A stretch of 59,584 nucleotides of DNA from a virus. Every line of letters starts with the position of its first letter. Position 1 is the first letter of the stretch. The notes under the pieces were generated by a model. That model was given only the letters and a program-made list of their open reading frames with translations. It did no database searches and was not told where the DNA came from. The stretch covers positions 1 through 59,584 of IMG/VR virus record IMGVR_UViG_3300045988_105378; one strand, 5' to 3'. Below, piece after piece: positions 33,052-59,584 of this stretch. Both the position numbers and the translations under genes were made by a program.

Positions 33052-34077
33052 ATGAATAATGTAGATAAAAATGGATACATAATCGAGCCAGAAGAACTAA
33101 ATCAAGAATATGAAAGTTCTCAATTTCTAATGCTTACTTATGATATATTAGTGGATAAAAGATTAAGTGATTTTCAAAAATTACTATTTGCCAGTATAAC
33201 AGGTCTATGTAAACAAAGAGGATATTGCTGGGCTGGCAATGCTTACTTTCAAAAATTATTTAATAGAAGCCAAACACAAGTAAGTGAAGGAATATCAAAA
33301 TTGGTTGAATATGGGTATCTAAAAAGAGAAATAGTTTATAAGAAAAAAGAAGACAAAGATGGTAAAATTATTACAACAAAACAGATATCTTTTAGGAAAT
33401 TATTTGTAGTTATTAACAAGGCGGATTGGAATACGGGTATACCGGAAAACCAGAATAGGGGTATACCGGAAAACCAGAAGCAAATAGATAATCCTTTAAT
33501 AGATAATCCTACTTCTAATAATTCTATATTATCTAAAGATAATAAGAATTATATAGAAGACAACACGGAAACGGTTGTCAATAATACGGATGATAATATT
33601 AAAAATAATAATATAGAAGATAAGAATGGAATTGAAGATAGTAAGATTTTTAGTGGGAAGGCGGATACTTCCGCATCAGTTCTAAAAACGCCCGCCGCCG
33701 AGGGTGAAGAAAAACCTAAGAAGGGAAAAGGTGGTCTTGGACCATTGTATGATGAAATTACAAAAAGAATACCAGCGGCAATATATCCAACATTGAATGC
33801 GGCATTAAAAACTTACTTAAAAGCACATTTAGGAATAAGAAGATTACCGAGTCCGGAGAAATGGGAAGATATGATAAAGAAGTTACAAGAATATGCCAGT
33901 GTGGAACTTAGTGGTGCGAGTGGTAAAAAGTTTATGGAAAACAGGGCATTGGAAATAGTTAAAAAAGCAATAGATGGAAAAGATGGGGTGCCATATACAG
34001 ATTTCGATGATATCTATGATAAGGGGTTGATGGAACCAACCTTTGAATTAAACCGAGATTATACAAAAGGTTACTAA
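33052..34077 (+). CDS. replication initiator / replisome organiser (winged-helix N-terminal domain) carrying internal iterons
   Basis: ATG 33052 after AGGAGGAGGAG; the track start at 33016 would include the promoter. The N-terminal LSDFQKLLFASITGLCKQRGYCWAGNAYFQKLFNRSQTQVSEGISKLVEYGYLKRE is a wHTH typical of phage initiator and replisome-organiser proteins. Central repeats GIPENQNR/GIPENQKQ and IDNPLIDNP. Confidence 0.55.
   Translation: MNNVDKNGYIIEPEELNQEYESSQFLMLTYDILVDKRLSDFQKLLFASITGLCKQRGYCWAGNAYFQKLFNRSQTQVSEGISKLVEYGYLKREIVYKKKEDKDGKIITTKQISFRKLFVVINKADWNTGIPENQNRGIPENQKQIDNPLIDNPTSNNSILSKDNKNYIEDNTETVVNNTDDNIKNNNIEDKNGIEDSKIFSGKADTSASVLKTPAAEGEEKPKKGKGGLGPLYDEITKRIPAAIYPTLNAALKTYLKAHLGIRRLPSPEKWEDMIKKLQEYASVELSGASGKKFMENRALEIVKKAIDGKDGVPYTDFDDIYDKGLMEPTFELNRDYTKGY
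33435..33510 (+). repeat. putative origin iterons: 2 x 24-bp direct repeat each containing the palindrome GGTATACC, then 2 x AATAGATAATCCT, then an AT-rich tract
   Basis: GGGTATACCGGAAAACCAGAATAG / GGGTATACCGGAAAACCAGAAGCA, then AATAGATAATCCTTTAATAGATAATCCTAC, then an AT-rich stretch. Confidence 0.45.
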
Positions 34078-34667
34078 TGGATATCGAACAAAGAAATAAA
34101 AGGGTTGAAGAAAATCTTAAATTGGTGTCGCACGCACTATCATTGCTAAAAGTTCCTTGGAACGAAGATTATTTCCAACAGGGGGTATTGGAGTTAATAA
34201 GATGTGCAGAGAAGTATGATGAGAGCAAAGGTTATAAGTTTAGTACTTACGCAGTTAAGTGTATAACACTAAAATTAAAAGATTATATAAAAAGAGACTA
34301 TGTTTTAAAACCAAAACTAACAGGGGAAAAAGGTGGTAAGGTATATGCACCACCAACTATTAGTTTAAACACAATAGTTCATGATGGTGCTGGTGATAAG
34401 GCAATATTCTTGGAAGATGTTATAGAGGATGATGTTAATTGGGAAGAAATAGATTTAGGAATAGAGTTAGATAACATAGTAGAGAAGAAAATAATAAGTA
34501 AAGATGAATTACAATTATTTATAGATTCGGAGGTCAATGGTTATCCACTTAAGACATTAACTAAGAAGTATAATGTAACAAATAGGGTGGCAAGAGGAAT
34601 AATTTCTAGGGTTAGAGAAACCTTAGCGGAAAATATTTCGTATAATTATTATGAAGGAGGTCAATAG
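34077..34667 (+). CDS. sigma-70 family RNA polymerase sigma factor (phage-encoded)
   Basis: A region-2 signature LELIRCAEKYDESKGYKFSTYAVKCITLKLKDYIKRD fits the sigma-70 region 2.1-2.3 pattern LiQEGniGLmkAvekFDp.rGfkFSTYAtwwIrqaI. A C-terminal HTH (LTKKYNVTNRVARGIISRVRETL) fits region 4.2. Confidence 0.7.
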   Translation: MDIEQRNKRVEENLKLVSHALSLLKVPWNEDYFQQGVLELIRCAEKYDESKGYKFSTYAVKCITLKLKDYIKRDYVLKPKLTGEKGGKVYAPPTISLNTIVHDGAGDKAIFLEDVIEDDVNWEEIDLGIELDNIVEKKIISKDELQLFIDSEVNGYPLKTLTKKYNVTNRVARGIISRVRETLAENISYNYYEGGQ

Positions 34668-38462: not shown

Positions 38463-39239
38463 ATGGCAAGATTAAACGCAGAACAAGCAGCATCATTTCC
38501 ATCAAGTGGTGGAAGAAGTAGTTTCCTATCATTACAAAATGATGGGGATTCAGCAGTAGTTAGATTTGCATATAACACTGTTGATGAATTATGTGGATGT
38601 GATTCAGTTCATACAATTAAGAATATTCAAACAGATAGATATGTTACAGTTGATTGTTTGAAAACTGATAATAGTAATCCAGATAGTGTATGTCCGTTAT
38701 GTGCGGCAGGAATTAAAATGCAAAAAACTTACTATTTACAAGTAAGAAATGAAGAAACTGGAGAAATGCAATTATGGCAAAGAGGTGAAAACTTTGTTCT
38801 TAATACATTAGTTCCAATTCTAGCAGATTATGAAGCAGATGGAACACCAATTACAGGTGTACCTATTAAAATAGTAAGAAAAGGTGCAAAGGGGGATTTG
38901 AATACTAAATATAATCTAATACCTAGACCAGTAGATGGAATGTTATTAGATCAATTCCCACAAGATATTGATGTTAGAGCAGAAGGTATTGTAAAGGAAT
39001 ATACATTCCAAGAATTACAAAACTTTATTCAAACTGGTCAATTACCTGCTAGTGGTAATGATGGTGATAATAACCAAGCAATTAGACCAAGAGGTAATAT
39101 GAATAATCCATATGATAATATGGGACAACCAGCAAGAGTTGAAAATTATGTAAATCAAGGTGGTCCAGTACAAGCACCAGTACAAGCACCTGCAACAAGA
39201 AACAGAAGAACTATTAGTGGCAATCAAGGCGGATACTAA
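38463..39239 (+). CDS. hypothetical Cys-containing protein with Q/P/N-rich C-terminus (258 aa)
   Basis: ATG at track start +57, preceded by GAAGGAGGAAAACGCA. CGC..C...CPLC cysteines. Low-complexity tail NQGGPVQAPVQAPATRNRR. Confidence 0.45.
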   Translation: MARLNAEQAASFPSSGGRSSFLSLQNDGDSAVVRFAYNTVDELCGCDSVHTIKNIQTDRYVTVDCLKTDNSNPDSVCPLCAAGIKMQKTYYLQVRNEETGEMQLWQRGENFVLNTLVPILADYEADGTPITGVPIKIVRKGAKGDLNTKYNLIPRPVDGMLLDQFPQDIDVRAEGIVKEYTFQELQNFIQTGQLPASGNDGDNNQAIRPRGNMNNPYDNMGQPARVENYVNQGGPVQAPVQAPATRNRRTISGNQGGY

Positions 39240-41524
39240 TGGCTTTATTTGATACTTATTCTAGAAGCTCTAAGGAGATGGATAGAATTTTAAAGGAAAA
39301 GGCAAATAAGAAAACCAGACCAAAAACTGGTAAATCTAATAACCTTTTAACAAGAATAAATACTATCCGAGAAAGAGTAGAAGAAAACCTAGGTGAGTAT
39401 AAAGATGATTACATAATTCTAACAAAGGATGAAGAAGTTAAAGATTATTTCTTAAAATTAAGAAATGCAAAACTAGTGGCAATAGATACAGAAACCACAG
39501 GTTTAAACTTTTTCCAAGATAAAATAGTTGGTATAAGTTTATACGCAGAGGGATTAAAAGCTTCCTATATCCCTCTAAACCATATATCAAGTATATATCA
39601 AACTAGAATTGATGGTCAGGCAAACATAGACCTAGTAAAAGAAGAAATGAAAAGGTGCATAGATTCTAACACTCAATTTATTTACCACAATGGTAAGTTT
39701 GATTTGAATGTATTAGAAACATTCTTAGGATTTAAGATGAATTGTCCATATTGGGATACCTTAGTGGCAAGTTACTTAATTACTAATGATAAAAACCAAA
39801 GAAGTTTGAAAGACCAATACAACAAGTATTGTAGTCATTTAGAAAATAAAGATAAGATAAATACTTTAAGTCATTTCCATGATTTATTTGAAGGATTGAG
39901 ATTTGATTATGTTCCTATACAATGTGGTTATATATATGCAGCAAGAGATGCATTTATGACATATAAGTTATTTGAACACCAAAGGGAATTCTTTGAACAA
40001 AAGGGAAATGAGGAATTGTATAAGTTATTTAAAGATGTTGAGGTTCCTTTAGTTCAAGTAACAGCAGATATGCAAAGAACTGGTGTTGCTATAGATATGG
40101 ATTTAGCAAAAAGATTAAAAACCGAATATGATGATAAATTAGCGGATATTACTAAACAAGTAAATGAAGAAATTCATAAGTTCGAGGATAAGATTATTAA
40201 ATATAGAATGATACATTATAATACTAAATTACAAGAACCAATAAACTTCAATAGTTCAGAACAATTAGCAATATTACTTTATGATATAATTGGTTGTGTT
40301 AATCCAGATAAGGAAAAACCGAGAGGGGTAGATGAAAAAGCATTAAAGCATATCAATATACCATTAACCAATGCAATATTAGAGTACAGAACAGTAAATA
40401 AATTGCTAAGTACATATATTGATGCTATACCAGCAAGAATAGAACCTACAGATGGTAGATTACATGCTAGTTTTAATCAAAATGGTGCAGATACTGGAAG
40501 ATTTAGTTCTAGTGAACCAAACTTACAAAATATACCGAGAGATGGTGGTATAAGATGTATGTTTAAAGCAACAGATGGTTATTATTTAGTAGGTGCCGAT
40601 TATTCACAACAGGAACCAAGAGTATTGGCTCATTTATGCCAAGATGAGAATATGATAAATGCTTATGCCACAGGTAAAGATTTATATAGTACTATGGCAA
40701 GTTTAGCATTTCATGTGCCTTATGAGCAATGTAAAGAATTTAATCCAGATGGAACTACTAACCATGAAGGTAAGGAGAGAAGAAGTAGGATTAAAGCAGT
40801 TGTTTTAGGGTTAATGTATGGTAGAGGTGATGCCAGTGTTGGTGAGCAATTAGGAATACCAGTGGAAGAAGCAAGAGAATTATCAAAGGCGTTATTTGAT
40901 GCCTTTCCAAAGATGAAGCAATATATTGAAGAAACTAAGGAAAAGGTTAAGAAGATTGGTTATACTACTACTTTATGGGGCAGAAGAAGATACTTAGAGT
41001 ATATTACTAAAGATAAATACGAATATAAGTATGGAGTAAATAGACCAATAAACTTTGATCCAATGTTAGATTCAGATGATGATGGTAGTACTGAGGTTAG
41101 CCAAGATATAAAAGATTATTACAATAATTTATTAGACAAGGCTAATTTTACTAAGAGAAAACAAATAATTGCCGATGCAGCAAGGCAAGGTATATTGATA
41201 GAAGATAATGGTTATTGGATTGCTGAGTCAGAGAGACAGGTAGTTAATAGTATAGTTCAAGGTTCAGCAGCAGATATGACTAAAAGAGCTATGGTGGCAT
41301 TATATAGAAATGAGGAACTTAATAGATTAGGTTTTAGATTGTTAATGTCAGTACATGATGAAAATATAGGGGAATGCCCTAAAGAGAATGTAAAAAGGGT
41401 TACAGAATTACTTAGTGAGATAATGATAGCAGCAAATAACAAATGTTGTGTAAAGATGAAATGTGATGCAGAGGTATCAGAGGTTTGGTATGGACCAAGC
41501 ATAGATTTGAAGGAGGTAGAATAA
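39239..41524 (+). CDS. family A DNA polymerase (3'-5' exonuclease + polymerase domains)
   Basis: Exo I VAIDTETTGL, exo II YHNGKFDLNVL, exo III YAARDAFMTYKLF. Pol motif A GADYSQQEPRVLAHL, motif B RRSRIKAVVLGLMYGRG, motif C LLMSVHDENIGE. Confidence 0.9.
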   Translation: MALFDTYSRSSKEMDRILKEKANKKTRPKTGKSNNLLTRINTIRERVEENLGEYKDDYIILTKDEEVKDYFLKLRNAKLVAIDTETTGLNFFQDKIVGISLYAEGLKASYIPLNHISSIYQTRIDGQANIDLVKEEMKRCIDSNTQFIYHNGKFDLNVLETFLGFKMNCPYWDTLVASYLITNDKNQRSLKDQYNKYCSHLENKDKINTLSHFHDLFEGLRFDYVPIQCGYIYAARDAFMTYKLFEHQREFFEQKGNEELYKLFKDVEVPLVQVTADMQRTGVAIDMDLAKRLKTEYDDKLADITKQVNEEIHKFEDKIIKYRMIHYNTKLQEPINFNSSEQLAILLYDIIGCVNPDKEKPRGVDEKALKHINIPLTNAILEYRTVNKLLSTYIDAIPARIEPTDGRLHASFNQNGADTGRFSSSEPNLQNIPRDGGIRCMFKATDGYYLVGADYSQQEPRVLAHLCQDENMINAYATGKDLYSTMASLAFHVPYEQCKEFNPDGTTNHEGKERRSRIKAVVLGLMYGRGDASVGEQLGIPVEEARELSKALFDAFPKMKQYIEETKEKVKKIGYTTTLWGRRRYLEYITKDKYEYKYGVNRPINFDPMLDSDDDGSTEVSQDIKDYYNNLLDKANFTKRKQIIADAARQGILIEDNGYWIAESERQVVNSIVQGSAADMTKRAMVALYRNEELNRLGFRLLMSVHDENIGECPKENVKRVTELLSEIMIAANNKCCVKMKCDAEVSEVWYGPSIDLKEVE

Positions 41525-42444
41525 TGGAATACTATGTAGTTAAACCGCCATATAAGAATATAGTTAATTATTGTATGGAACATAAGATTGCAATGATGCT
41601 TTCTTATTATAGTGATAAGAAAACAGCATATGATAATTTCTTAAAGCCTAGAAAGGAAAGAGCAGAAAAAGGATTAGAAAATGGTAAACTATTTATGGAT
41701 AGTGGTGCCTTCACTGCTTGGACTAAAGGTGCAACAATTGATGTTGATGAATATTGTAATTACATAAGTGAATATGGTGAATATGTGGATTACTTTGGAC
41801 AATTGGATACAATACCAAAAGTTGGTGGAACTGTAAAAGAAGCCGAAGAAGCAGCGAAAAGTACATTAGAAAACTATAAATATATGGTTTCCAAAGTAAA
41901 ATATCCAGAAAAAGTGGTTTTTACATTTCACGTAGGGGAACCAATAGAGGTATTGAAAGAGGCATTAACTTGGGGCAAGGAACATAAAGATATAATGAAA
42001 ATGATAGCGATCGGAGGTATGGTTAAAAAGAATGCCGATGATAAACATTCAGTAATAAGTAGAGTATTTAGTGCTATTAGGGAAATATACCCAGAGGTTA
42101 AAGTTCATTTATTTGGTTGTACTAGTAAACAATACTTTTTAGATTATCCAGCAACAAGTGGTGATAGTAGTAATTACATAATGTCAGCAACCAAAGGTGG
42201 GGTGTGGACACCTGGTGGTTTATATGGATTCGGTGAAAAGAAAGATAAGAACCATTACCTACTTCAAAGATATGATGTAAAAGAGGCTATTGATAAATAT
42301 TTAGAAGAAATCGGTATGCCGGCAGAATTACTAATGGAACACGCTAAGCATAGATTACTAGCAAATATTAAGTATATTGAAAGAGAGTTTTATTTAAAGA
42401 AAGTGGAGAATAAAACTAGAAGACAAACAAGGAGGTTATTCTAA
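41524..42444 (+). CDS. dpdA: DpdA-like DNA-guanine transglycosylase (TGT superfamily), C-terminal RRLF tail
   Basis: TGT active-site-like motif KLFMDSGAFTAW (compare TDSGGFQ). Immediately follows the polymerase gene and precedes the preQ0-synthesis genes. ATG 41524 after GGAGGTAGAATA. Confidence 0.6.
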   Translation: MEYYVVKPPYKNIVNYCMEHKIAMMLSYYSDKKTAYDNFLKPRKERAEKGLENGKLFMDSGAFTAWTKGATIDVDEYCNYISEYGEYVDYFGQLDTIPKVGGTVKEAEEAAKSTLENYKYMVSKVKYPEKVVFTFHVGEPIEVLKEALTWGKEHKDIMKMIAIGGMVKKNADDKHSVISRVFSAIREIYPEVKVHLFGCTSKQYFLDYPATSGDSSNYIMSATKGGVWTPGGLYGFGEKKDKNHYLLQRYDVKEAIDKYLEEIGMPAELLMEHAKHRLLANIKYIEREFYLKKVENKTRRQTRRLF

Positions 42445-43118
42445 TGTATAAGTTTGATGTTAAACCTGCTGATTATTTATTTAGTAAAGAGGAAAGGGAA
42501 AGCCGCGAAGATTGTAAAGTAGAAAATCTAGTTGGTGAGGAGGCAGTATTAAATAGTAAAGTAATTGATGATGCTTTTGAAAGAATACTAGCAGATTTTA
42601 AACCAAAACATAATAAAGTAATCTTTTCCCTATGCAGTAGTAGTAGACCATATATACTAAGTCAGAAGTGGAAATCATTCCATGAACACTTTGGTGATGT
42701 GGCAGATTTGGTTATATGTTCAAATGGTGGTATAATTCCAATTGAATATATGTGCTGTTTCCCATTTATGCAATATGATGCCCACAGGGCAAATGCCGGA
42801 ACAGACCAATTATATAAAGATAAGATGAAGGATAAACTTCAAAGGTTTTTAGATAAATTCGGTAGTAATTATGAAATTATAATTTATAGTTTCCTACCTA
42901 GTTCTAGAAATGCTGAAGCAATAAGAGAAATGAATGGAGCCGGAGGTGTTCTATTACCATCTCAAGAAGTTTATAGAGATATTATTGATAATGGATGTCC
43001 GGGGGTTAACTCAAGAAGATACCCACAATGTGCTAGACAAGCTATAAAAGAGATGGCGGAACATTTAAAGGTTGATGTTGATTTACCATTTAGTGCTAAG
43101 CAAAGACGTTTATTCTAA
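42444..43118 (+). CDS. hypothetical protein of the deazaguanine cluster (224 aa), C-terminal RRLF tail
   Basis: ATGA overlap with dpdA. Ends ...SAKQRRLF like DpdA (...RRQTRRLF). Confidence 0.5.
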   Translation: MYKFDVKPADYLFSKEERESREDCKVENLVGEEAVLNSKVIDDAFERILADFKPKHNKVIFSLCSSSRPYILSQKWKSFHEHFGDVADLVICSNGGIIPIEYMCCFPFMQYDAHRANAGTDQLYKDKMKDKLQRFLDKFGSNYEIIIYSFLPSSRNAEAIREMNGAGGVLLPSQEVYRDIIDNGCPGVNSRRYPQCARQAIKEMAEHLKVDVDLPFSAKQRRLF

Positions 43119-43128
43119 AAAAGTTTCG

Positions 43129-43134
43129 TATAAT
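43129..43134 (+). promoter_or_regulatory. tcgTATAAT-type promoter (family member 5; AAAAAAGTTTCGTATAATAATAATGGGAAGG)
   Basis: Begins 11 nt after the stop of the previous gene. RBS and queC start 24 nt downstream. Confidence 0.3.
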
Positions 43135-43157
43135 AATAATGGGAAGGAGGAATAGAG

Positions 43158-43856
43158 ATGAAAGCATTAGTTTTAAATAGTGGTGGTGTTGATAGTACTA
43201 CTTGCGTAGCAATTGCCGTAGATAAATATGGTAAAGATAATGTAGTTACAGCATCATTATACTATGGGCAAAAGCATGATAAGGAATTAAAGTGCGCACA
43301 AAAGATAGCAGATTACTATGGGGTAAGACATATTGAAAGAGATATTTCAAGCGTTATGGAATTTGCCAAAGATGTTTGTACTTTAATGAAAGGCGGAGAA
43401 GAAATAGAACATGCTTCTTATGCAGAACAGATTAAAGAACATGGTGAAGGTAGGGTAGCAACATATGTACCTTTTAGAAATGGATTATTTCTATCAATAG
43501 CAGCAGCAGTTGCAGATAGTATATTCCCTGGTGAAAAGGTAGAAATATTCTATGGTGCCCACGCTGATGATGCTGCCGGAAGAGCTTATGCCGATTGTAG
43601 TCCAGAATTTGCAGCAGCAATGGATGAAGCAATTAACATTGGTACTTATGGTAACATTACAGTAAACAGACCTTTAATCAATCTAAATAAAGCCGGAGTG
43701 GTTAAAATTGGTTTAGGTTTAAATGTTCCATACGAATTAACTTGGTCTTGCTATGAAGGTGGAGAAAAACAATGTGGTACTTGTGGTACTTGCATTGATA
43801 GAAAAGCAGCATTCGAAGCCAACGGAGTAAAAGACCCAGTTGAATATGAAAATTAA
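43158..43856 (+). CDS. queC: 7-cyano-7-deazaguanine synthase
   Basis: PP-loop LVLNSGGVDSTTC. C-terminal zinc cluster CYEGGEKQCGTCGTCIDR. Confidence 0.85.
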   Translation: MKALVLNSGGVDSTTCVAIAVDKYGKDNVVTASLYYGQKHDKELKCAQKIADYYGVRHIERDISSVMEFAKDVCTLMKGGEEIEHASYAEQIKEHGEGRVATYVPFRNGLFLSIAAAVADSIFPGEKVEIFYGAHADDAAGRAYADCSPEFAAAMDEAINIGTYGNITVNRPLINLNKAGVVKIGLGLNVPYELTWSCYEGGEKQCGTCGTCIDRKAAFEANGVKDPVEYEN

Positions 43857-43911
43857 ATAATTTATAAGTTGTATGAAAATCCAACCAACTTAAAAAATAC
43901 TAGGAGGAAAT

Positions 43912-44574
43912 ATGAAGAAAAAGTTTAAAAGAAATATTAGTGAGTTACAATTATATCTAACTTTACTATTTGTAGTAAGTTTGTTAATTAGTAACATTAT
44001 TACAGCCAAGCAGGTATTATTACCTTTTGGAATTGTAATGACAGGAGCAGTATTCGTATTCCCTATTACCTATATACTTTCGGATTTATTTTCCGAAGTA
44101 TATGGATATAGATGGAGTAGAATAACTTGCTATCTAGGATTTGCAGCAAATCTATTTATGGTTTTAATATTCAGTGCGGTTATAGCAACACCAGCACCTG
44201 ATTATTGGTTAAACCAAGAAGCATTTCAAACAGTGCTAGGAAATACACCAAGAGTATTGGTGGCATCATTATTAGCATTCGTTCTAGGGGATTTCGTTAA
44301 TGATAGGGTATTTAGAAAAATGAAAGAAAAATATCCTAACAGTATAAAAGGATTTGGATGGAGAGCAATACTATCCAGTGTTTGTGGAGAATTAGTGGAT
44401 AGTTTAGTATTCTTACCAATAGCATTTATTGGTCAAATGCCTTTAAAAACATTAGCAGTTATGACAGTAATGCAAGTTTTAATTAAAACTGGATATGAAG
44501 TAATTATATTACCAATTACTAGATTAGTTGTTAAGAAAACATCAGCATACGAAAATAGAATGGGAGTGAAATAA
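43912..44574 (+). CDS. queuosine-precursor transporter (YhhQ/VUT-like membrane protein)
   Basis: 220 aa. Six hydrophobic segments. N-terminal region LLFVVSLLISNIITAKQVLLPFGIVMTGAVFVFPITYILSDLFSEVYGY resembles YhhQ-family preQ0/preQ1 importers. Confidence 0.55.
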   Translation: MKKKFKRNISELQLYLTLLFVVSLLISNIITAKQVLLPFGIVMTGAVFVFPITYILSDLFSEVYGYRWSRITCYLGFAANLFMVLIFSAVIATPAPDYWLNQEAFQTVLGNTPRVLVASLLAFVLGDFVNDRVFRKMKEKYPNSIKGFGWRAILSSVCGELVDSLVFLPIAFIGQMPLKTLAVMTVMQVLIKTGYEVIILPITRLVVKKTSAYENRMGVK

Positions 44575-45056
44575 TGGAAGTAACGGAGGCAATGGTATTT
44601 GCTAATGAGTTAGCAAAACAAAATCTTATGACAAATAACGGAGGTCCATTCGGGGCAGTGGTTATAAAAGATGGTAAGATTATAGGTGTTGGTAATAATA
44701 GAGTTATTGGAAATAATGATCCAACAGCACATGCCGAAGTAATGGCAATTAGGGATGCTTGTAAGAATTTGAATACATATGATTTAAGTGGTTGTATAAT
44801 GGTAACTAGTTGTTATCCTTGTCCAATGTGCTTAAGTGCAATTATATGGTCCAATATTAAACAAGTATACTATGGAAATACAAAAGAGGATGCAGCAGAT
44901 ATAGGATTCAGAGATGATTTCATTTATAAGTTTTTAGATAAATTAAACAATAGTGAAAAAGATGATGAAGTATTAGTATTGTATCCTTGTAATAGAATAG
45001 TAACAATGGAATCATTCCTTGAATTTAAAAACAAGGAAGATAAAACAATATATTAG
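44574..45056 (+). CDS. CDA-fold zinc deaminase, closest to the guanine deaminase (GuaD) / TadA type
   Basis: GGPFGAVVIKDGKIIGVGNN...DPTAHAEVMAIRDA...VTSCYPCPMCLSAIIW, the HAE + PCxxC zinc motifs of the cytidine-deaminase fold. Confidence 0.65.
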   Translation: MEVTEAMVFANELAKQNLMTNNGGPFGAVVIKDGKIIGVGNNRVIGNNDPTAHAEVMAIRDACKNLNTYDLSGCIMVTSCYPCPMCLSAIIWSNIKQVYYGNTKEDAADIGFRDDFIYKFLDKLNNSEKDDEVLVLYPCNRIVTMESFLEFKNKEDKTIY

Positions 45057-45068
45057 GAGGTATAAAAT

Positions 45069-45416
45069 ATGTATTATGTAAGTAAAAGAATGGAAATTGC
45101 TGGGGCACACAGACTTAATTTAGATTATGAAAGTAAGTGCCTAAACCTACACGGACATAATTGGATTGTAACAGTTCATTGTAAGGCAAAAGAATTAAAT
45201 AGAAATGGAATGGTTGAGGATTTTACTTTAATTAAAAAAGAAATCCATGATAAACTAGACCATCAATACCTTAATGAAGTGCCAGAACTAAGAGGAATCA
45301 ATCCTACAGCAGAAAATATTGCTAAGTGGATTTGTGAACAGATACCAACCTGCTATAAGGTAGAAGTTCAAGAATCAGAAGGTAATATAGCAACATATGT
45401 TGAGGAGGATTTCTAA
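45069..45416 (+). CDS. queD: 6-carboxy-5,6,7,8-tetrahydropterin synthase
   Basis: 115 aa. CLNLHGHNWIVTVHC motif (Cys-x-x-x-His-Gly-His). Confidence 0.8.
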   Translation: MYYVSKRMEIAGAHRLNLDYESKCLNLHGHNWIVTVHCKAKELNRNGMVEDFTLIKKEIHDKLDHQYLNEVPELRGINPTAENIAKWICEQIPTCYKVEVQESEGNIATYVEEDF

Positions 45417-46150
45417 TGATACCAGTAGCAGAAATATTTGGACCAACCATTCAAGGTGAAGGTCCAAATACTGGTTTAAAATCAATATTCGTAAGAGTGG
45501 CAGGTTGCGATTTTAAATGTAGTTGGTGTGATAGCAAGTTTGCTTGGAAAGTTGATATAAAGACAACAAGATTTCAAAATCCATCACAACTTGCGGCAGA
45601 GTTATTCAAACGATGCCTAGAAACCCATACAAGTCATATAATTCTAACTGGTGGAAATCCTTGTTTATATGATTTCGGACCAGTTATAAAAGAATTAAGA
45701 AAATACAATATTACTTTCGATGTGGAAACACAAGGAAGTAAATTACCAGATTGGTTATTAGAAATAGATACTATAGTAATTAGTCCAAAAGCACCATCTA
45801 GTGGACAGCCAGATGTTATGGAGAGTGTACAGGACTTATTAAAAAGAATAGTTATGTTACCTGGTCATAAAAGACCGAAGGTAGCAATTAAAATTCCAGT
45901 TTTCACTGATGAGGACTTTAAGTTTGCAGAGAGATGGTTTGAATTAGTAAAAGGTTCAATATTCAGTTTAGATATAAAGTTGTATTTAAGTGTAGGTAAT
46001 ACAAATACAACAGAGAGTGGCGATATATCCGGTAGAGTATTAGCAGATTACAAAAAGTTAATTGATAAGGTAATCAGCAGTAATATGGATAGGGTATATG
46101 TAATGCCACAAGTACATACATTAGTATGGGGAAATAAACAAGGAGTATAG
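45416..46150 (+). CDS. queE: 7-carboxy-7-deazaguanine synthase (radical SAM)
   Basis: GEGPNTGLKSIFVRVAGCDFKCSWCDSKFAW, a CxxxCxxC radical-SAM cluster motif in the QueE arrangement. Confidence 0.8.
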   Translation: MIPVAEIFGPTIQGEGPNTGLKSIFVRVAGCDFKCSWCDSKFAWKVDIKTTRFQNPSQLAAELFKRCLETHTSHIILTGGNPCLYDFGPVIKELRKYNITFDVETQGSKLPDWLLEIDTIVISPKAPSSGQPDVMESVQDLLKRIVMLPGHKRPKVAIKIPVFTDEDFKFAERWFELVKGSIFSLDIKLYLSVGNTNTTESGDISGRVLADYKKLIDKVISSNMDRVYVMPQVHTLVWGNKQGV

Positions 46151-46161
46151 GAGGAAACAAT

Positions 46162-46734
46162 ATGGATAATGCTAAGTTAGAACAAGCAGCAAAGTTAATC
46201 ATTGAAGCAGTTGGGGATGATATTACTAGACCAGGTTTGGTTGAAACACCAAAAAGATTTGCCAAGATGATGAATGAAGTGCTTGAAGGTATGAAATATA
46301 CCAACAAAGAAATTGGTGAAATGTTTAAGAAAGAATTCGAAATTGGGTCAAACGATTTAGTTACAATGTCCGATATCGATGTATTTAGCTTTTGCGAGCA
46401 TCATATAGCATTGATGTATGATATGAAAGTAAGCGTAGCATATTTACCAAAGGATGGAAAAGTTTTAGGTTTAAGTAAAATTGCTAGAATAGCAGATATG
46501 TGTGCTAAGAGATTACAATTACAGGAGAAGATTGGAATGGATATAGCAGAATGTATCAGCATAGCAACTGGTAGTGAAGATGTAATGGTTGTTATAGAAG
46601 GTAAACACGCTTGTATGACAACAAGAGGAATTAAAAAAGTTAATTCAGTTACTAGAACTTCTACTACTACAGGTAGATTTGAAACAGATAGAACTTTGGA
46701 AGAAAGAGCTTATATATTATTAGGGTTAAAATAA
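46162..46734 (+). CDS. folE: GTP cyclohydrolase I
   Basis: GLVETPKRFAKMMNE...FCEHHIALMYDMKVSVAYLPKDGKVLGLSKIARIADMCAKRLQLQEKI. Conserved CEHH and LSK motifs. Confidence 0.85.
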   Translation: MDNAKLEQAAKLIIEAVGDDITRPGLVETPKRFAKMMNEVLEGMKYTNKEIGEMFKKEFEIGSNDLVTMSDIDVFSFCEHHIALMYDMKVSVAYLPKDGKVLGLSKIARIADMCAKRLQLQEKIGMDIAECISIATGSEDVMVVIEGKHACMTTRGIKKVNSVTRTSTTTGRFETDRTLEERAYILLGLK

Positions 46735-46747
46735 GAAGGAGGAAATT

Positions 46748-47848
46748 ATGATAAAATTAAAAACTGAAGTATTAAGAGATATGCTTAACAAGGCAGTAAA
46801 GGTTTGCTCATTTAATAAAATGTTACCTTTAACTGGACTAGTTGAAATGGAAACTAATGCAGAAGGATTATTCCTAAAAACTACGGATGGAATTACCACA
46901 ATGGTAATTAAAGAAAAAATTGAAGGATTAGAACCAGCAAGAGTAACAGTAGATGCTAATATTATTACAGCATTGGTTAATAAGATTACTACTGAAGATA
47001 TTGAATTACTTATTAGTAATAATGCTTTAACTATTACTGGTAATGGTGTATACAATTTAGAAATCAGGGTAGATGAGAGTGGAGAGATAGTTAAATTACC
47101 TGCTATCAATCAGGAGTTAGCAAACTCAGCAACTAAAGAGTTTGATTTTAAAGGTATTGTAGAAAGATTAAATATTTGTAAATCAGCAATAGCTGTTGGT
47201 GAAGATGGAAAAGAATTAAGAAATTACTATCTAAAGGATATGATAATTGCTACAGACCAAGTTAAAGTTAGTGCGGTTAGCAATATTCCATCAATGGTTA
47301 ATGAAGAACTATTTATTGGGGTTGATTTAGGTAGAATTATAATGGATTTAGGATTTATCAAAGCCAATTATGCTAGAAGTAATGAAAACCTTGTTATAGT
47401 CGGAGAAAACTTTGTTTTAAGTAGTACTATGCAATTAGATGACTTAGGAAACTATGGAAAAACATTACAAGGTGTTCAAGGTTTAATCAATTCAGTTTAT
47501 GCTAATAAAGTTACAGTTAAGAAAAATGATTTAATAAGTTTATTAGATAGACTAGGAATATTTGTTTCAGAATATGATTCAAGTAGTATAGATTTACTAT
47601 TCTTACCAGAATATATCAAAGTTACAAACCAAAAGAAAACTTGTGATGAAATTATTAAATATGAAAAGGCAGAGGTTAATGGTTTAGTTGAATTCCCGTC
47701 AGTATTAAATATAGAACATTTAAGACAATTATTGGCAGTTTTACCAGATGAAACAATTGAATTCCAATTTGATAGTTCTATGCCAACAGTTAAGATAGTA
47801 GATGGTGATATAGTTCAATTCTTAGGAATAATGGATGAGAATCAATAA
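46748..47848 (+). CDS. DNA polymerase sliding clamp (beta-clamp, DnaN-like)
   Basis: 366 aa. The N-terminal LKTEVLRDMLNKAVKVCSFNKMLPLTGLVEMETNAEGLFLKTTDGITTMV follows the DnaN N-terminal pattern. Three-domain size. Adjacent to replication genes. Confidence 0.7.
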   Translation: MIKLKTEVLRDMLNKAVKVCSFNKMLPLTGLVEMETNAEGLFLKTTDGITTMVIKEKIEGLEPARVTVDANIITALVNKITTEDIELLISNNALTITGNGVYNLEIRVDESGEIVKLPAINQELANSATKEFDFKGIVERLNICKSAIAVGEDGKELRNYYLKDMIIATDQVKVSAVSNIPSMVNEELFIGVDLGRIIMDLGFIKANYARSNENLVIVGENFVLSSTMQLDDLGNYGKTLQGVQGLINSVYANKVTVKKNDLISLLDRLGIFVSEYDSSSIDLLFLPEYIKVTNQKKTCDEIIKYEKAEVNGLVEFPSVLNIEHLRQLLAVLPDETIEFQFDSSMPTVKIVDGDIVQFLGIMDENQ

Positions 47849-52284: not shown

Positions 52285-53358
52285 ATGGCACAACCATTAG
52301 CAAATAAATATAGACCTAAAACTTTCGAAGATGTAAGTGAACAAGGTGCTATTAAAGTAATTATAGAAAATCAGATAGCTAACGATGATTTAAGAAATGC
52401 TTATCTATTTTGTGGGGGTGCTGGAACAGGTAAAACTACTTGTGCCAGAATAATTGCCGATATGATAAATGAGCATAAGGGAAGTCCAATAGAATTAGAT
52501 GCAGCAAGTAATAATTCAGTTGAGGATGTAAGAAGAATTATTACAGATTCTAAATTCAAATCAATGGATAGTAAATATAAGATATACATAATTGATGAGT
52601 GCCATAGTTTATCAAATGCAGCTTGGCAAGCATTCTTAAAATTATTAGAGGAACCGCCAAAGTTTACAGTGTTTATGTTCTGTACAACAGACCCACAGAA
52701 GATTCCCGGCACTATATTAAGTAGGGTTCAAAGATATAATTTCCAAAGAATTAGTAAAGATGGAATCATAAAGAGATTAAAATATATCATTGAACAGGAA
52801 AACAATGAAAATTATTATAATAAAGGGGATTGGCAATTAAATGACGTGGAAGCTGATAGGAAGTACTATGAGGACAATGTTATTAGATTTGAGGAGGAAG
52901 CTTTAGATTATATAGCAAAACAAGCACAAGGTGGAATGAGGGATGCTATTACTACATTGGATAAATGTTTATCTTATAGCAAAGATTTAAGTTTAAAGAA
53001 TGTAGTAGATGTATTATCAGCAGGGGTTACCCCATATGATTTAAGTGAATTTACTTTATGTTTATTAGATAAAGATACAAATGCGGCATTAGATTGCTTG
53101 AACCAATTCTTTATGAGTGGTATTGATATGGGTTTATTAGTAAATAGTTACTTTGAGTTTTTACTAAACCTACAGAAGTATTTAGTATTAGGTAGCAAAG
53201 AAATTGCTAATTTACCAGCAGATTTATTGAATAAGTATAATAAGAATGATTCTGATTACATTAGAACCTATATTACTAAATTATATTCGGTTATAACAGC
53301 ACCAAAGATGAATGTTAAATCATTACTTGAGGCGTGGGTGATTGAAAGATGTATTTAG
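52285..53358 (+). CDS. clamp loader ATPase (DnaX gamma/tau-like, AAA+)
   Basis: YRPKTFEDV...AYLFCGGAGTGKTTCARI (Walker A), IIDECHSLS (Walker B), ILSRVQRYNF (sensor / SRC-like). Confidence 0.8.
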   Translation: MAQPLANKYRPKTFEDVSEQGAIKVIIENQIANDDLRNAYLFCGGAGTGKTTCARIIADMINEHKGSPIELDAASNNSVEDVRRIITDSKFKSMDSKYKIYIIDECHSLSNAAWQAFLKLLEEPPKFTVFMFCTTDPQKIPGTILSRVQRYNFQRISKDGIIKRLKYIIEQENNENYYNKGDWQLNDVEADRKYYEDNVIRFEEEALDYIAKQAQGGMRDAITTLDKCLSYSKDLSLKNVVDVLSAGVTPYDLSEFTLCLLDKDTNAALDCLNQFFMSGIDMGLLVNSYFEFLLNLQKYLVLGSKEIANLPADLLNKYNKNDSDYIRTYITKLYSVITAPKMNVKSLLEAWVIERCI

Positions 53359-54134
53359 TTGGTCAAAAGAAAAATAAAGAGTTAATAGATAGTGGTAAAT
53401 TAGACAATGCCACTTTCATTCTTATTAAAGGTCCGAAGAACTATGGTAAAACTTATTTAACAAAGTATATTGCCGACCATTATAAAATGAATTACTTATT
53501 ATTAGATAATAAAGTTGATACAATAAGGGATTTAGTTAATAGCAGTAATATGAATAATAACTGTGTATACCATTTTAAAGATTTTGATAAATCTTCCCCA
53601 GCGGCTAAGGCGGCATTATTAAAAATAGCAGAGGAAACACCAAAGGGAATTAGAATAGTGGTTACTACTTCAGCATATAATTTTCTAGATACCTTAGTAA
53701 GTAGGGCATATGTCATTGATATGGCGGCATATTTATTTGAGGATATAAAAGAGTATGGTAATAATTTAGATGTAGAAGACGTACTAATAGACAGGTTGAA
53801 CAAGTCTTATTTGGATTTAACACCAACTTTATTATTTAAGTTAAAGAGTAGTGATTATTTAACAGAGGTATTGGATTTAGCAGATGAGACAGTAGAGTCC
53901 TTGAATCGAGGATTAAAATTAGAAGATATTTCCAGAATATCAGCAAAGTTTTGGAAAGATGATAAGGATAGGTTACTACTTTATCTAGATATACTAAGTA
54001 GAAGTAGTCATAGAATAAACAAGGATTATTATAAGGTGGTACTGGCAGTGGAGTATACTAAATCAATGTTAAATAGGATTGCTATAAGTAATTATAGAAA
54101 CTTAGTACATAATATGTTAATGGAGATGGTATAA
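53349..54134 (+). CDS. clamp loader subunit (delta-prime-like, putative)
   Basis: FILIKGPKNYGKTYL P-loop-like. Sits between the DnaX-like and delta-like genes. Confidence 0.45.
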   Translation: MYLVGQKKNKELIDSGKLDNATFILIKGPKNYGKTYLTKYIADHYKMNYLLLDNKVDTIRDLVNSSNMNNNCVYHFKDFDKSSPAAKAALLKIAEETPKGIRIVVTTSAYNFLDTLVSRAYVIDMAAYLFEDIKEYGNNLDVEDVLIDRLNKSYLDLTPTLLFKLKSSDYLTEVLDLADETVESLNRGLKLEDISRISAKFWKDDKDRLLLYLDILSRSSHRINKDYYKVVLAVEYTKSMLNRIAISNYRNLVHNMLMEMV

Positions 54135-55102
54135 TGAAATCACTGATAGATTTAAAGAAAGAATTGAAAGAAGGTAATCTAACACAGAATTTATATATAT
54201 TTACTGGTGAAGAGAATTACATAAGACGTTTATACTATTTGAAAATCGGTGAAATATACGGCAATTTAAAGAGTTTGGATACAGTTAGTAATTTATATAG
54301 GGAACTTGAGAAAAGGGCTCTATTCGGTAAGAAACCGGCATATATCGTATATAACGATGTAGATTTTCTTAAACAAAAGGAAAAAGTATATGAAAGACTT
54401 GTAAGACTTTGTAAAGGTCATGTGGTAATTTTAGTATTCGAAGAGATACCAGAGAAAGGACCATTTAGAAATGTACTGGATGATTATATAACAGTATTTA
54501 ATAGAGTATCAGATGATATTGCTATGAAATATGTAACTAGGGAGTATCCAATTAGAGATAGAATGTTAGTACAAAAAATCGCTTTCAATTGTTATAATTC
54601 GTATAATAATATCATAGAGGAGATGAATAAGTACAAATGGTTTAAGAATCAAGAAAAATATGATTGTGAAGTAAACCAAATGGAGTACAATGATGATGCA
54701 ATAGATGCAATGACTTATGCTTGTCTATTTAATGACAGGAAGGTAATACCAACAGCAAAAGAATTTGCTAATGCTTTTCTAAGAAGAGATGGTGGATTAT
54801 TAGCAAAGTATATGAAATTATTAAAAGATGAAAATATACTAGGTTATTTACCGGAGTTATATAACACAATTGTATTAGCATTATACTTAAAAATCTATGG
54901 TAAATGGGATGGTGGAACTAGAGCTTATAATGCCGGTGAATACTGGGGCAGAATAAAGGAAATAAGAGATTTCAATATTAGTTATACCAAAACAGATTTA
55001 CTTGATATAAGGTACTTATTATACCAATTAGACCTAGATGTAAGGAGTGGTAGAATGAGAGCTGATTTGGCGTGGGATTGGTTGATAGGGGTGATACTAT
55101 AA
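54134..55102 (+). CDS. clamp loader delta-like subunit (putative)
   Basis: The N-terminal NLYIFTGEENYIRRLYYLKIGEIYG resembles the HolA N-terminus. Call by synteny. Confidence 0.45.
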   Translation: MKSLIDLKKELKEGNLTQNLYIFTGEENYIRRLYYLKIGEIYGNLKSLDTVSNLYRELEKRALFGKKPAYIVYNDVDFLKQKEKVYERLVRLCKGHVVILVFEEIPEKGPFRNVLDDYITVFNRVSDDIAMKYVTREYPIRDRMLVQKIAFNCYNSYNNIIEEMNKYKWFKNQEKYDCEVNQMEYNDDAIDAMTYACLFNDRKVIPTAKEFANAFLRRDGGLLAKYMKLLKDENILGYLPELYNTIVLALYLKIYGKWDGGTRAYNAGEYWGRIKEIRDFNISYTKTDLLDIRYLLYQLDLDVRSGRMRADLAWDWLIGVIL

Positions 55103-55266
55103 TGGAAATAGTAAGAAGCTATCAATTCAAAAAAGAAGATAGGTGTAAGAGATGTGGGAGGAGATTAAAGAATAATGAATCCCAATTATTAGGTTACGGT
55201 CCTAGTTGTTACAAAAAATATTTAAAAGAACAAAGAGGAAGGCGAAAGGATAGGAGGTTATTTTAG
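55072..55266 (+). CDS. small zinc-ribbon protein with C-terminal RRLF tail (64 aa)
   Basis: CKRCGRRL...GPSCYKK. Ends KDRRLF. Confidence 0.45.
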   Translation: MGLVDRGDTIMEIVRSYQFKKEDRCKRCGRRLKNNESQLLGYGPSCYKKYLKEQRGRRKDRRLF

Positions 55267-56741: not shown

Positions 56742-57097
56742 AGTTAAGACAATATAAATTAGGTGACCAAATAAAAACAAGAGAAGGCGGTAGATGGAGA
56801 ACACCATTTACTGTTGAAGTTATTTATAAAGGATTTGTGGTGGCAGTAAATAGACAATCTAGAACTAACCCACAATTCTTATTTATTAAAACGTATGCTA
56901 ACGAAGTATATAATGGGTCAAGTAGATTTCTAAAATACGGAGTAGATAATAAAAGTAGTATTAAAGCATTTATTGATGGAGTTATTAAAGGTGAGTATAT
57001 TTTAGAAAAAGATACTTGTACCCCTATTCATATGATGTTAGCAGATAGTGAGTTTATTACAAATGAAAGGAGGGAGCAAGTTCATTATGAAGACTAA
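56735..57097 (+). CDS. hypothetical protein (120 aa)
   Basis: ORF. Confidence 0.5.
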   Translation: MVKLRQYKLGDQIKTREGGRWRTPFTVEVIYKGFVVAVNRQSRTNPQFLFIKTYANEVYNGSSRFLKYGVDNKSSIKAFIDGVIKGEYILEKDTCTPIHMMLADSEFITNERREQVHYED

Positions 57098-57707
57098 TAC
57101 AATTGAGGATATGTGGAAAGAATACTCAGAATTATTATTAAGTACTAAAAGACCTGGTATGAAACAATTAGTGGAATGGTTGAATAATTCAGATTTTAAA
57201 GTAGCACCAGCAAGTACAAGATACCATAATGCCAAAGAAGGTGGATTGATGGAACATAGTTTAAATGTTTACTATGAACTAATTAGACAGCAAGATTTAA
57301 TTAGATTATTCAGTATACCACAAGATACCTTAATCATTACAGCATTACTACATGATATATGCAAAGTAAACTATTATAAAATGGATGTGAGAAATGTTAA
57401 GAAGAATGGGGCTTGGGTACAAGAACCATATTATACAGTTGATGATATGTATCCAATAGGACACGGTGAGAAAAGTATTATAATAGCACAAGAGTTTATA
57501 AAACTAAATGATGTGGAAGTTGCAATGATTAGAAATCATATGGGTGGATTTGTGGATAATAGTTACTTTAGTTCTTCAGCATTATTCAATAAGTATCCAG
57601 AATCATTACTATTACATATGGCTGATATGAGGGCAACATATATAGTAGAATCACCAGGATTACTTGAGGAATTTAAAGAAAAGTTAGATGAATACTTAGT
57701 AAAATAG
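57087..57707 (+). CDS. HD-domain metal-dependent phosphohydrolase
   Basis: H..HN...GGLMEHSLNV and LLHDICK (H...HD signature). ATG 57087 after AAGGAGGGAG. Confidence 0.65.
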   Translation: MKTNTIEDMWKEYSELLLSTKRPGMKQLVEWLNNSDFKVAPASTRYHNAKEGGLMEHSLNVYYELIRQQDLIRLFSIPQDTLIITALLHDICKVNYYKMDVRNVKKNGAWVQEPYYTVDDMYPIGHGEKSIIIAQEFIKLNDVEVAMIRNHMGGFVDNSYFSSSALFNKYPESLLLHMADMRATYIVESPGLLEEFKEKLDEYLVK

Positions 57708-59332: not shown

Positions 59333-59584
59333 ATGTTTGGAATAAGTCATATTACCGTAAGTGGTAAAAACAAAAGTAAAGAAGAAATTAAAAAGGAAAT
59401 ACTAGAACAAGTTGATAAGCAAGTTGAGGAAATGTTCAATGCTAACAAAAAGAAAGAAGAGGCTAAAAAAGAACCAGAAGTAAAAGAAAACCAGCATTTA
59501 CATATAATGATGGATGAAGTGGATAATAAAAATGGTTTTAATTGCGAAGTTGATACAAATGGTAAATTAAATGATTTGATGTTA
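59333..59584 (+). CDS. hypothetical protein, 5' part; continues through the circular junction into 56..187
   Basis: ATG 59333 after GGAGGAAAGATAAA. Open to the window end. Confidence 0.5.
   Translation, partial: MFGISHITVSGKNKSKEEIKKEILEQVDKQVEEMFNANKKKEEAKKEPEVKENQHLHIMMDEVDNKNGFNCEVDTNGKLNDLML
59530..59584. repeat. 55-nt exact duplicate of window positions 1..55 (circular-closure overlap or direct terminal repeat)
   Basis: Identical string AAATGGTTTTAATTGCGAAGTTGATACAAATGGTAAATTAAATGATTTGATGTTA at both ends. Confidence 0.9.

Follow-up and report, generated by a model that had tools for sequence, protein, structure and literature searches.

Phage 7-deazaguanine modifications block many restriction enzymes and affect from ~0.1% to 100% of the guanines in phage DNA, a spread for which the reasons are not understood. 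The subfamilies of the transglycosylase DpdA, the genes for preQ0 (7-cyano-7-deazaguanine) synthesis, ArcS and homologues of the transporter YhhQ were all described in phages by Hutinet 2019 (PMC6884629), and ArcS2 function, DpdA3 and DpdA4 by Hutinet 2023 (PMC10516641). Here, a related gene block was analysed in a 59,584-nucleotide stretch of phage DNA (IMG/VR record IMGVR_UViG_3300045988_105378; hereafter the window). The block (41524-46734) holds eight + strand open reading frames (ORFs), set between genes for a family-A DNA polymerase (PolA) and a DnaN-like sliding clamp; a previous sequence-only reading had correctly recognised it as a phage 7-deazaguanine DNA-modification cluster, but had counted ten genes, a number that is reached only with the flanking PolA and DnaN. 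In addition to DpdA, a predicted archaeosine synthase domain (ArcS2), YhhQ and the preQ0 enzymes QueC, QueD, QueE and FolE, the block encodes a deaminase that, judged from its sequence, appears to be a guanine deaminase of the Bacillus subtilis GuaD type.

Several described systems share parts of this arrangement. In Vibrio phage nt-1, as in the window, a stand-alone ArcS core-domain protein adjoins a DNA transglycosylase and preQ0 genes; however, nt-1 has a DpdA2 where the window has a DpdA1 type, host phylum and phage type differ, and neither a deaminase nor YhhQ is annotated in the 18.5-kb stretch around its cluster. Enterobacteria phage 9g resembles the window in its DpdA1-type enzyme with His196, in having dpdA by the clamp gene, in its full preQ0 pathway and in its end product, 2'-deoxyarchaeosine (dG+), which is predicted for the window (PMC6884629). 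In contrast, 9g makes archaeosine (G+) by a Gat-QueC fusion rather than by the ArcS2 predicted here, and no deaminase or importer is annotated in the 9g stretch examined. Streptococcus phages Dp-1 and MS1 and Bacillus phage Flasso have the replication-module backbone and the PolA-to-DnaN cassette slot of the window, with DpdA proteins 31-34% identical to that of the window, but their cassettes lack both ArcS2 and a deaminase. Flasso carries an annotated QueF reductase, and Dp-1 encodes a QueF-like protein and has dPreQ1 in its DNA (PMC6884629). Flavobacterium phage immuto_2-6A and Cellulophaga phage phiST have no GuaD, and have DpdA3 instead of DpdA1; immuto_2-6A also has QueF and a formyltransferase-like gene. 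Finally, B. subtilis GuaD (1WKQ/1TIY) shares its fold family, zinc motif and C-terminal Tyr with the window deaminase, but is a stand-alone purine-catabolic gene, whereas the window gene is embedded in a DNA-modification operon.

The word "deaminase" is absent from Hutinet 2019 (PMC6884629) and Hutinet 2023 (PMC10516641), and a search for literature joining guanine deaminase or TadA with DpdA or deazaguanine, which left most subscription journals outside its reach, found nothing relevant. The sequence-only reading had considered the deaminase to be a non-standard member. The combination of DpdA1, ArcS2, YhhQ and GuaD is thus new, although all cassette parts except the deaminase have already been described for phages. 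The importer had likewise been considered non-standard, but the MS1 cassette contains a "membrane protein" that is 77% identical to the window YhhQ, and phage YhhQ homologues had already been noted (Hutinet 2019, PMC6884629). The new leads are the recurrent guanine deaminase, a phosphoribosyltransferase-like alternative to it, and a C-terminal tail shared by several proteins of the phage.

A GuaD-type deaminase in phage deazaguanine cassettes

The deaminase gene (44574..45056, + strand) encodes a protein of the cytidine deaminase (CDA) fold that matches PF00383 with E 4e-27. Its closest solved relatives are the B. subtilis guanine deaminase structures 1tiy and 1wkq (E 5e-39, 136 bits), and it is ~57% identical to B. 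subtilis GuaD over 113 residues. The next solved relatives are plant (Arabidopsis) guanosine deaminases (E 6e-28, 100 bits), followed by TadA at E 3e-18 or worse and dCMP deaminases at E 4e-5 or worse. The zinc/catalytic motif (H53-A-E55 and P82-C83-P-M-C86) is invariant in the aligned deaminases, and F26, N42, H53, E55, C83, C86, W92, D114 and the C-terminal Tyr are all invariant in the phage, bacterial and B. subtilis copies. F26, N42, W92, D114 and the terminal Tyr presumably have the base-pocket roles assigned to them in the 1WKQ literature, and in that work the C-terminus of guanine deaminase reportedly closes the base pocket. The domain swap and lid of CDA-type guanine deaminases have been described (PMC9081823).

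Two other identities were tried and rejected. The score against the TadA model NF008113 was 75.5 bits, relative to a cut-off of 150, such that the automatic JGI name "TadA" is unsupported. For a dCMP deaminase, the ComEB model TIGR02571 gave 19.3 bits against a cut-off of 219, in line with the poor structural matches above, and the name match was limited to the broad PHROG 174 (E 1e-15). The earlier label of GuaD/TadA type is thus upheld in its GuaD half and rejected in its TadA half, and the dCMP deaminase that had been named as the outcome contradicting it finds no support in these scores. The automatic labels "TadA" (JGI) and "dCMP deaminase" (PHROG) hide the link of the gene to guanine.

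The window deaminase has 69-75% identity to its counterparts in other phages, and the same range applies to stand-alone bacterial copies. Thousands of relatives are present in a large protein database, and those that are ~70% identical form two groups: a phage-side clade of 52 clusters, which holds all five copies verified inside phage cassettes, and a sister clade of 30 clusters, which holds two verified stand-alone bacterial copies (with neighbours ThiI, GltX, CysS and LtaS). Only four positions, all conservative and non-catalytic, separate the two clades. Most likely, the protein is an ordinary guanine deaminase that was recruited from a Bacillota-like host lineage.

Across the metagenomic relatives sampled, at least nine distinct arrangements of the deazaguanine cassette include a GuaD-type gene; these cassettes span four DpdA lineages, and their GuaD identities are 43-75%. 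The window order, DpdA-ArcS2-QueC-YhhQ-GuaD-QueD-QueE-FolE, is shared by relatives L017-L020. L010 and L032 have a shorter cassette, DpdA-QueC-YhhQ-GuaD, without FolE, QueD and QueE, and L006/L007 have DpdA''-QueC-GuaD-orf106-YhhQ next to terminase genes in a different phage type. In L029 (QueC-YhhQ-QueD-QueE-FolE-DpdA'-GuaD') the deaminase is only 43% identical, versus 88% for QueC and 91% for FolE. Additional orders are a split DpdA-QueC-GuaD-QueD-QueE-FolE (L033), DpdA followed by QueC fragments and then by phosphoribosyltransferase (PRTase)-GuaD-QueD-QueE-FolE (L034), DpdA-QueC-x-x-GuaD-QueD-QueE-FolE (L117), DpdA-x-GuaD-QueC-QueD-QueE-FolE (L118), and DpdA-ArcS2-DpdA'-GuaD-QueD-QueC-QueE-FolE, with an N-terminal extension on GuaD (L133). 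In contrast, a survey of 80 bacterial GuaD loci (813 kb) found no QueC or DpdA at a distance of 6 kb or less, and YhhQ and QueD are each found at that distance in 1/80; the relatives among the matches listed in the genome-contig scan are at most 64% identical. Because at least nine rearranged phage layouts compare with 0/80 bacterial loci with QueC or DpdA, the linkage of GuaD to the cassette is specific to phages, and it has survived extensive rearrangement.

Several of these loci have further peculiarities. The L033 DpdA is split into two ORFs (L033:4347-5277). In L034, a 191-kb contig, PolA, QueC and QueE are called in pieces and a fragment of a HAD-like hydrolase adjoins the phosphoribosyltransferase; this fragmentation may be due to stop-codon recoding or to assembly errors. 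In L133 (ENA ERZ28613789 scaffold_310), two DpdA paralogues flank ArcS2, the GuaD extension is ~80 residues long, QueE is interrupted by an intein-like insert (PT-HINT), and PolA is split around a GIY-YIG homing endonuclease. Other, low-identity deaminase matches were set aside. Human faecal "Bacteriophage sp." records yielded deaminases at ~42% identity, but these lack neighbouring Que genes and are probably unrelated; the match in MT836799 looks bacterial and has a MurA-like neighbour. GuaD-type deaminases ~50% identical to that of the window are also present in two giant-virus-like IMG/VR contigs that look like NCLDV (L008 and L009), where they adjoin a 461-amino acid (aa) photolyase-like ORF and have no Que genes nearby.

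A proposed guanine sink and its alternatives

Enzymes of the TGT family form a covalent enzyme-nucleic acid intermediate, which is resolved by whichever base binds. With the bacterial DpdA/DpdB pair, incorporation of [14C]guanine into DNA reaches levels that agree with those of preQ0 insertion, and guanine exchange is the standard assay (PMC10164549); therefore, free guanine would be a competing substrate that regenerates unmodified DNA. In the mechanism proposed for the window, FolE, QueD, QueE and QueC would make preQ0 from GTP, and YhhQ would import preQ0 or preQ1 as a second supply. DpdA would then swap selected guanines in double-stranded DNA for preQ0, freeing guanine; up to this point, the reactions are established for the respective enzyme families. 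ArcS2, by analogy with the homologous nt-1 pair, would turn the inserted preQ0 into the archaeosine base (dG+). The deaminase would most likely convert free guanine, both that released by DpdA and that of the infected-cell pool, into xanthine. Once guanine is gone, it could not compete with preQ0 for the DpdA-DNA intermediate, and the exchange would be pushed towards the modified product. The purine would not be lost, as host salvage would return xanthine towards GTP, the starting material of the pathway. The modified base would protect the phage DNA from restriction.

The genes that replace the deaminase in related phages bear on this proposal. In L116 (8641-9006) and L119-L122, YhhQ-GuaD of the window is replaced by a 121-aa protein in the order QueC-[X]-QueD, and the nearest matches of this protein are to purine and xanthine-guanine phosphoribosyltransferases (1vdm, E 1e-11; E. 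coli Gpt, 1a95; NF006613). In L034 (5478-6008), the phosphoribosyltransferase-like protein and GuaD are side by side. The deazaguanine cluster of immuto_2-6A has a homologue between its QueE and FolE genes (L130:8980-9375). Another is found in phiST, where the stretch that was examined has no annotated Que genes adjoining it; a phosphoribosyltransferase goes unmentioned in the text of the 2023 paper that describes these two phages (PMC10516641). The alternation of two unrelated guanine-family enzymes in one slot points to the handling of a 2-amino-6-oxopurine base, and in the sister phages the phosphoribosyltransferase-like protein would clear guanine in a different way.

The sequence-only reading had already proposed that the deaminase acts on guanine released by DpdA, and the guanine-sink proposal gains indirect support from the recurrence of the deaminase in rearranged cassettes, from its phosphoribosyltransferase-like replacement and from guanine insertion by bacterial DpdA. 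The explanation as a whole, a deazaguanine DNA-modification block with GuaD as guanine sink, is given a probability of about 0.55, and the sink role of the deaminase itself falls somewhat short of even odds. Several points weigh against it. The sink role is deduced from gene linkage and from the enzymology of relatives, and guanine competition is known from the bacterial DpdA/DpdB pair rather than from a phage DpdA1. The deaminase is not universal, as Dp-1/MS1-like phages, Flasso and L132 have deazaguanine cassettes without GuaD. With 121-176 aa, the phosphoribosyltransferase-like protein is short, and it could use preQ0 rather than guanine. Similarly, the plant guanosine deaminases are close relatives of the window protein (E 6e-28), and its substrate could thus be a nucleoside. 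Finally, nt-1 ArcS2 made only trace dG+ in E. coli, such that the final base in the window is uncertain. If a guanine-removing accessory does operate in these phages, it would be a simple determinant of modification efficiency, and could raise yields in engineered systems.

Four other explanations of the deaminase were considered. It could be a general auxiliary purine gene that supports replication, either by altering the guanine/xanthine pool of the host or by lifting the guanine-dependent repression of purine genes, with its cassette position being accidental. This would fit its ~70% identity to housekeeping-type bacterial copies without any phage-specific change in the active site, as well as the GuaD-like genes that lie by a photolyase-like gene and far from Que genes in giant-virus contigs. 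However, the sampled tailed-phage genes with the GuaD signature are all inside deazaguanine cassettes, in varied orders and with varied DpdA lineages, the start of the window gene overlaps the yhhQ stop, and the replication-module proteins scanned include no other nucleotide-metabolism gene except an HD phosphohydrolase-like one (57048-57707), all of which makes an accidental position unlikely. The overlap with the importer gene, together with the adjoining QueC in most layouts, would instead agree with an enzyme that acts on a 7-deazaguanine base (preQ0, 7-carboxy-7-deazaguanine (CDG), ADG or an imported precursor) and makes a 7-deazaxanthine-type compound, either for insertion into DNA or for control of the precursor pool. 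The 2-amino-6-oxo pyrimidine ring that is attacked is common to preQ0 and guanine, and the alternating phosphoribosyltransferase-like protein could likewise use preQ0. Nonetheless, destruction of preQ0 would oppose the rest of the cassette, the invariant GuaD residues are unchanged and the two clades differ only at the four conservative sites, and CDA-type guanine deaminases are reviewed as strict for guanine and as not tolerating small scaffold changes (PMC9081823); this substrate is considered improbable.

About equally improbable is an enzyme of the plant GSDA kind, which would deaminate guanosine or deoxyguanosine from degraded host nucleic acids rather than the free base: the Arabidopsis structures are the second-best solved relatives, but the match to B. 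subtilis guanine deaminase is stronger (136 versus 100 bits), and the C-terminal ...Y is common to the B. subtilis enzyme. The slimmest prospect is that of a local ammonia donor for QueC and ArcS2, both of which need nitrogen. The stoichiometry would suit, with one NH3 released per guanine deaminated and one used per preQ0, and the gene usually adjoins QueC; against this, the slot is taken in sister phages by a phosphoribosyltransferase-like protein, which frees no ammonia, the L029 deaminase comes after DpdA and not QueC, and cellular ammonia is normally not limiting.

The DNA-modification genes

The gene identities proposed from sequence alone proved correct for seven of the eight genes of the block, the exception being the second, and the motifs then quoted (FMDSGAF, GGPFGAV, HAE and PCPMC) are all present. 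The first gene (41524..42444, + strand) starts with an ATG at 41524 behind a GGAGG site, and its homologues are 306 aa long. Its product matches PHROG 887 (E 6e-35) and, in tblastn searches, the DpdA proteins of MS1 (E 3e-32), Dp-1 (E 2e-22) and 9g (E 3e-14). An AlphaFold (AF2) model built from 34 homologues has a predicted local distance difference test score (pLDDT) of 91.7 and a predicted template modelling score (pTM) of 0.87, and the 50 best Foldseek matches listed for it in the PDB are without exception TGT enzymes, from archaea, bacteria or eukaryotes (E ~2e-9 to 1e-7, probability 1.0, query-normalised TM 0.54-0.62). D59, D214 and H195 are invariant across the 34 homologues. H195 aligns with His196 of 9g DpdA, D214 aligns with the Asp of the SIDST segment in bacterial DpdA 7ui4, and D59 is matched, by a weak alignment only, to Asp95 of Salmonella DpdA, in which Asp95 and Asp256 are the catalytic pair of general acid and nucleophile.

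Profile searches were less informative for this protein. Pfam TGT (PF01702) was not matched, and NCBIfam scores were low for TgtA (20.7 bits versus a cut-off of 350) and for DpdA NF041059 (20.2 versus 200); these models cover tRNA enzymes and bacterial DpdA, not the phage subfamilies. Against the PDB, the single sequence had no match, a seven-sequence profile returned noise only, and the 34-sequence profile had 7ui4 as its best match (E 0.03). A BLASTP comparison with nt-1 DpdA2 was not significant, and a histidine of the His196 type is absent from the DpdA2 family (Hutinet 2019, PMC6884629). The PHROG 887 and tblastn matches, the predicted fold, the D59, D214 and H195 residues and the non-significant comparison with nt-1 DpdA2 together identify the product of the first gene as a DpdA1-type (9g/Dp-1) protein, a predicted DNA-guanine transglycosylase. 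The earlier assignment to the TGT superfamily as a DpdA-like enzyme therefore stands, as PHROG 887, tblastn and Foldseek all place the protein inside the TGT/DpdA family.

The second gene (42444..43118, + strand), formerly described as an unknown 224-aa partner, encodes a predicted ArcS2, a stand-alone core (C1/DUF5591) domain of archaeosine synthase. It matches PF17884 (E 6e-10, 39.6 bits versus a cut-off of 26) and, partially, the NCBIfam ArcS model (E 5.5e-07), and is 30% identical to VPFG_00169 of nt-1 (E 3e-31). PF17884 is carried by all 53 normal-length ArcS2 homologue clusters (P0185-P0237). The window motif from C64, C-SSS-RPY-IL-S-QK-W, and the nt-1 form, C-TTT-RPY-EN-S-RK-W, share the pattern C-x3-RPY-x2-S-x2-W. 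Relative to the canonical C1 motif PC-x3-KPY-x2-S-x2-H (PMC10516641), the window version, LC-SSS-RPY-IL-S-QK-W, departs at P, K and H, and this degenerate motif is kept in the 53 homologue clusters. VPFG_00169 was named ArcS2 in the study in which nt-1 DpdA2 alone gave dPreQ0 in E. coli plasmids, and in which DpdA2 and ArcS2 together gave dG+ in E. coli at a trace or low level (Hutinet 2023, PMC10516641). With the 224-aa protein identified as ArcS2, the predicted end product shifts from dPreQ0 to dG+, which would be formed via dPreQ0.

The genes for preQ0 synthesis and import (all + strand) were assigned with curated models, and each of the identities given to them by the sequence-only reading scored above its cut-off. 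QueC, the preQ0 synthase (43158..43856; Pfam QueC, E 4e-55), reached 160.8 bits with TIGR00364 (cut-off 150.3), and QueD, 6-carboxytetrahydropterin synthase (45069..45416; Pfam PTPS, E 3e-32), reached 92.9 with TIGR03367 (cut-off 89.25). QueE (45416..46150), a radical S-adenosylmethionine (SAM) 7-carboxy-7-deazaguanine synthase of the B. subtilis type, matches Pfam Radical_SAM and TIGR03365 (222.6 bits versus 206.1), and FolE, GTP cyclohydrolase I (46162..46734; Pfam GTP_cyclohydroI, E 1e-59), matches NF006826 (213.7 versus 162). The YhhQ/Vut_1 protein (43912..44574; Pfam Vut_1, E 2e-41) scores 103.1 bits with TIGR00697 (cut-off 50.95), and is thus a predicted queuosine-precursor transporter. 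The L010, L032, L132 and L006/L007 cassettes keep QueC, together with DpdA and usually YhhQ, without FolE, QueD and QueE. Import of preQ0 by YhhQ would make QueC seem unnecessary in such phages; their gene content suggests that they depend on CDG from the host or take up another precursor.

Replication-module setting and a shared C-terminal tail

As noted earlier from the sequence, the block sits between a family-A DNA polymerase and a sliding clamp. PolA (39239..41524, + strand) is a 761-aa ORF, and an identical gene is on record with Pfam DNA_pol_A_exo1 and DNA_pol_A. The DnaN-like protein (46748..47848, + strand) is a 366-aa ORF; an identical gene is on record with a weak Pfam DNA_pol3_beta match, and the syntenic gene is annotated as DnaN in MS1, Flasso and Clostridium phage phiCTP1. 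PolA is ~40% identical to the PolA proteins of phiCTP1, MS1/Dp-1 and Flasso, and by this sequence comparison the window phage is assigned to their lineage. Within that lineage, the PolA-to-DnaN interval behaves as a swap site for alternative DNA-modification cassettes. For instance, the phiCTP1 interval (L005:10351-12359, gp50-gp52) holds a DNA methylase (PF01555) and not deazaguanine genes, that of MS1 holds QueC-QueD-QueE-FolE-YhhQ-DpdA, and that of Flasso a QueF-type cassette. When 50,697 phage records were searched at the DNA level for distant matches, nothing closely related to the block turned up, and the best matches were short stretches of 65-73% identity.

The cassette genes are co-oriented, have gaps of at most 56 bp, and have Shine-Dalgarno sites. 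Four TAATG stop/start overlaps are present, at PolA/DpdA, DpdA/ArcS2, YhhQ/GuaD and QueD/QueE, and the single + strand terminator-like site in the block is a weak stem at 42200, inside dpdA. This packing is far beyond chance, and the eight genes are one expression unit.

DpdA and ArcS2 have similar C-terminal ends: ...RRQTRRLF (42418-42444) and ...SAKQRRLF (43092-43118), respectively. The same RRLF terminus is found in only one other of ~95 + strand ORFs, a 64-aa Cys-rich ORF (55072..55266, + strand) that lies directly behind the clamp-loader genes (52285-55102) and ends in ...RRKDRRLF (55240-55266). An -LF end after a variable basic stretch is present in 57/64 DpdA homologue clusters, down to ~30% identity, and in 39/54 ArcS2 clusters. 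The last nine residues of DpdA are disordered in the AlphaFold model, and the [KR]xLF tail is absent from the cassette enzymes that act on free bases. Thus, the tail looks like a shared docking motif, a candidate for binding the sliding clamp or replisome.

In phage T4, gp43, gp33 and gp55 dock onto the sliding clamp gp45 by short hydrophobic C-terminal tails. The window phage is similar in that several of its proteins, though unrelated, have a short hydrophobic tail in common at the extreme C-terminus, and MS1 DpdA, Flasso DpdA and window ArcS2 end in QxxLF, which resembles bacterial beta-clamp-binding motifs (QL[SD]LF). However, unlike the gp45 and beta-clamp motifs, the window tail is basic ([KR][KR]xLF) rather than acidic or polar. 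dpdA adjoins the clamp gene in 9g and MS1, and in Flasso it lies two short ORFs upstream of the clamp gene. The DnaN-like clamp is accordingly a candidate docking partner of DpdA and ArcS2. A fuller version, in which both enzymes dock on phage DnaN via the disordered [KR]xLF tail and modify new DNA behind the fork while GuaD or the xanthine-guanine phosphoribosyltransferase (XGPRT)-like protein clears the ejected base, is speculative and rather unlikely to hold in full. No literature linking DpdA with a sliding clamp was found in a search that left out most subscription journals, and neither DpdA nor the clamp is listed in the published Dp-1 host-phage interactome. If correct, clamp docking would be the first known case of a DNA base-exchange enzyme coupled to the sliding clamp. 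It would link base exchange to replication and explain how a post-replicative transglycosylase attains a high modification density, and would also mean that the substrate of ArcS2 is DNA rather than the free base, a question that the 2019 paper did not settle for phage G+ synthases.

The first 55 bases of the record (1-55) are repeated exactly at 59530-59584. Such an exact terminal repeat is a signature of circular assembly and marks the record as a complete phage genome (59,529 bp). Contigs nearly identical to it were found in several metagenomes. The host is probably a member of the Bacillota, judging only from the relatives and from the "Bacilli bacterium" name of the nearest bacterial GuaD. 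No tRNA genes were found in the 59,584-nt window. The replication module also includes the HD-type metal-dependent phosphohydrolase-like gene (PHROG 28876/5889), which could be relevant to nucleotide pools, and a phage sigma-factor gene at 34077-34667 (PHROG 351). Nearly all long ORFs of the genome are on the + strand. This strand has a strong excess of purines (A 23853, G 12120, T 17014, C 6597), with a GC skew between +0.17 and +0.38 in each 2-kb interval of the genome.

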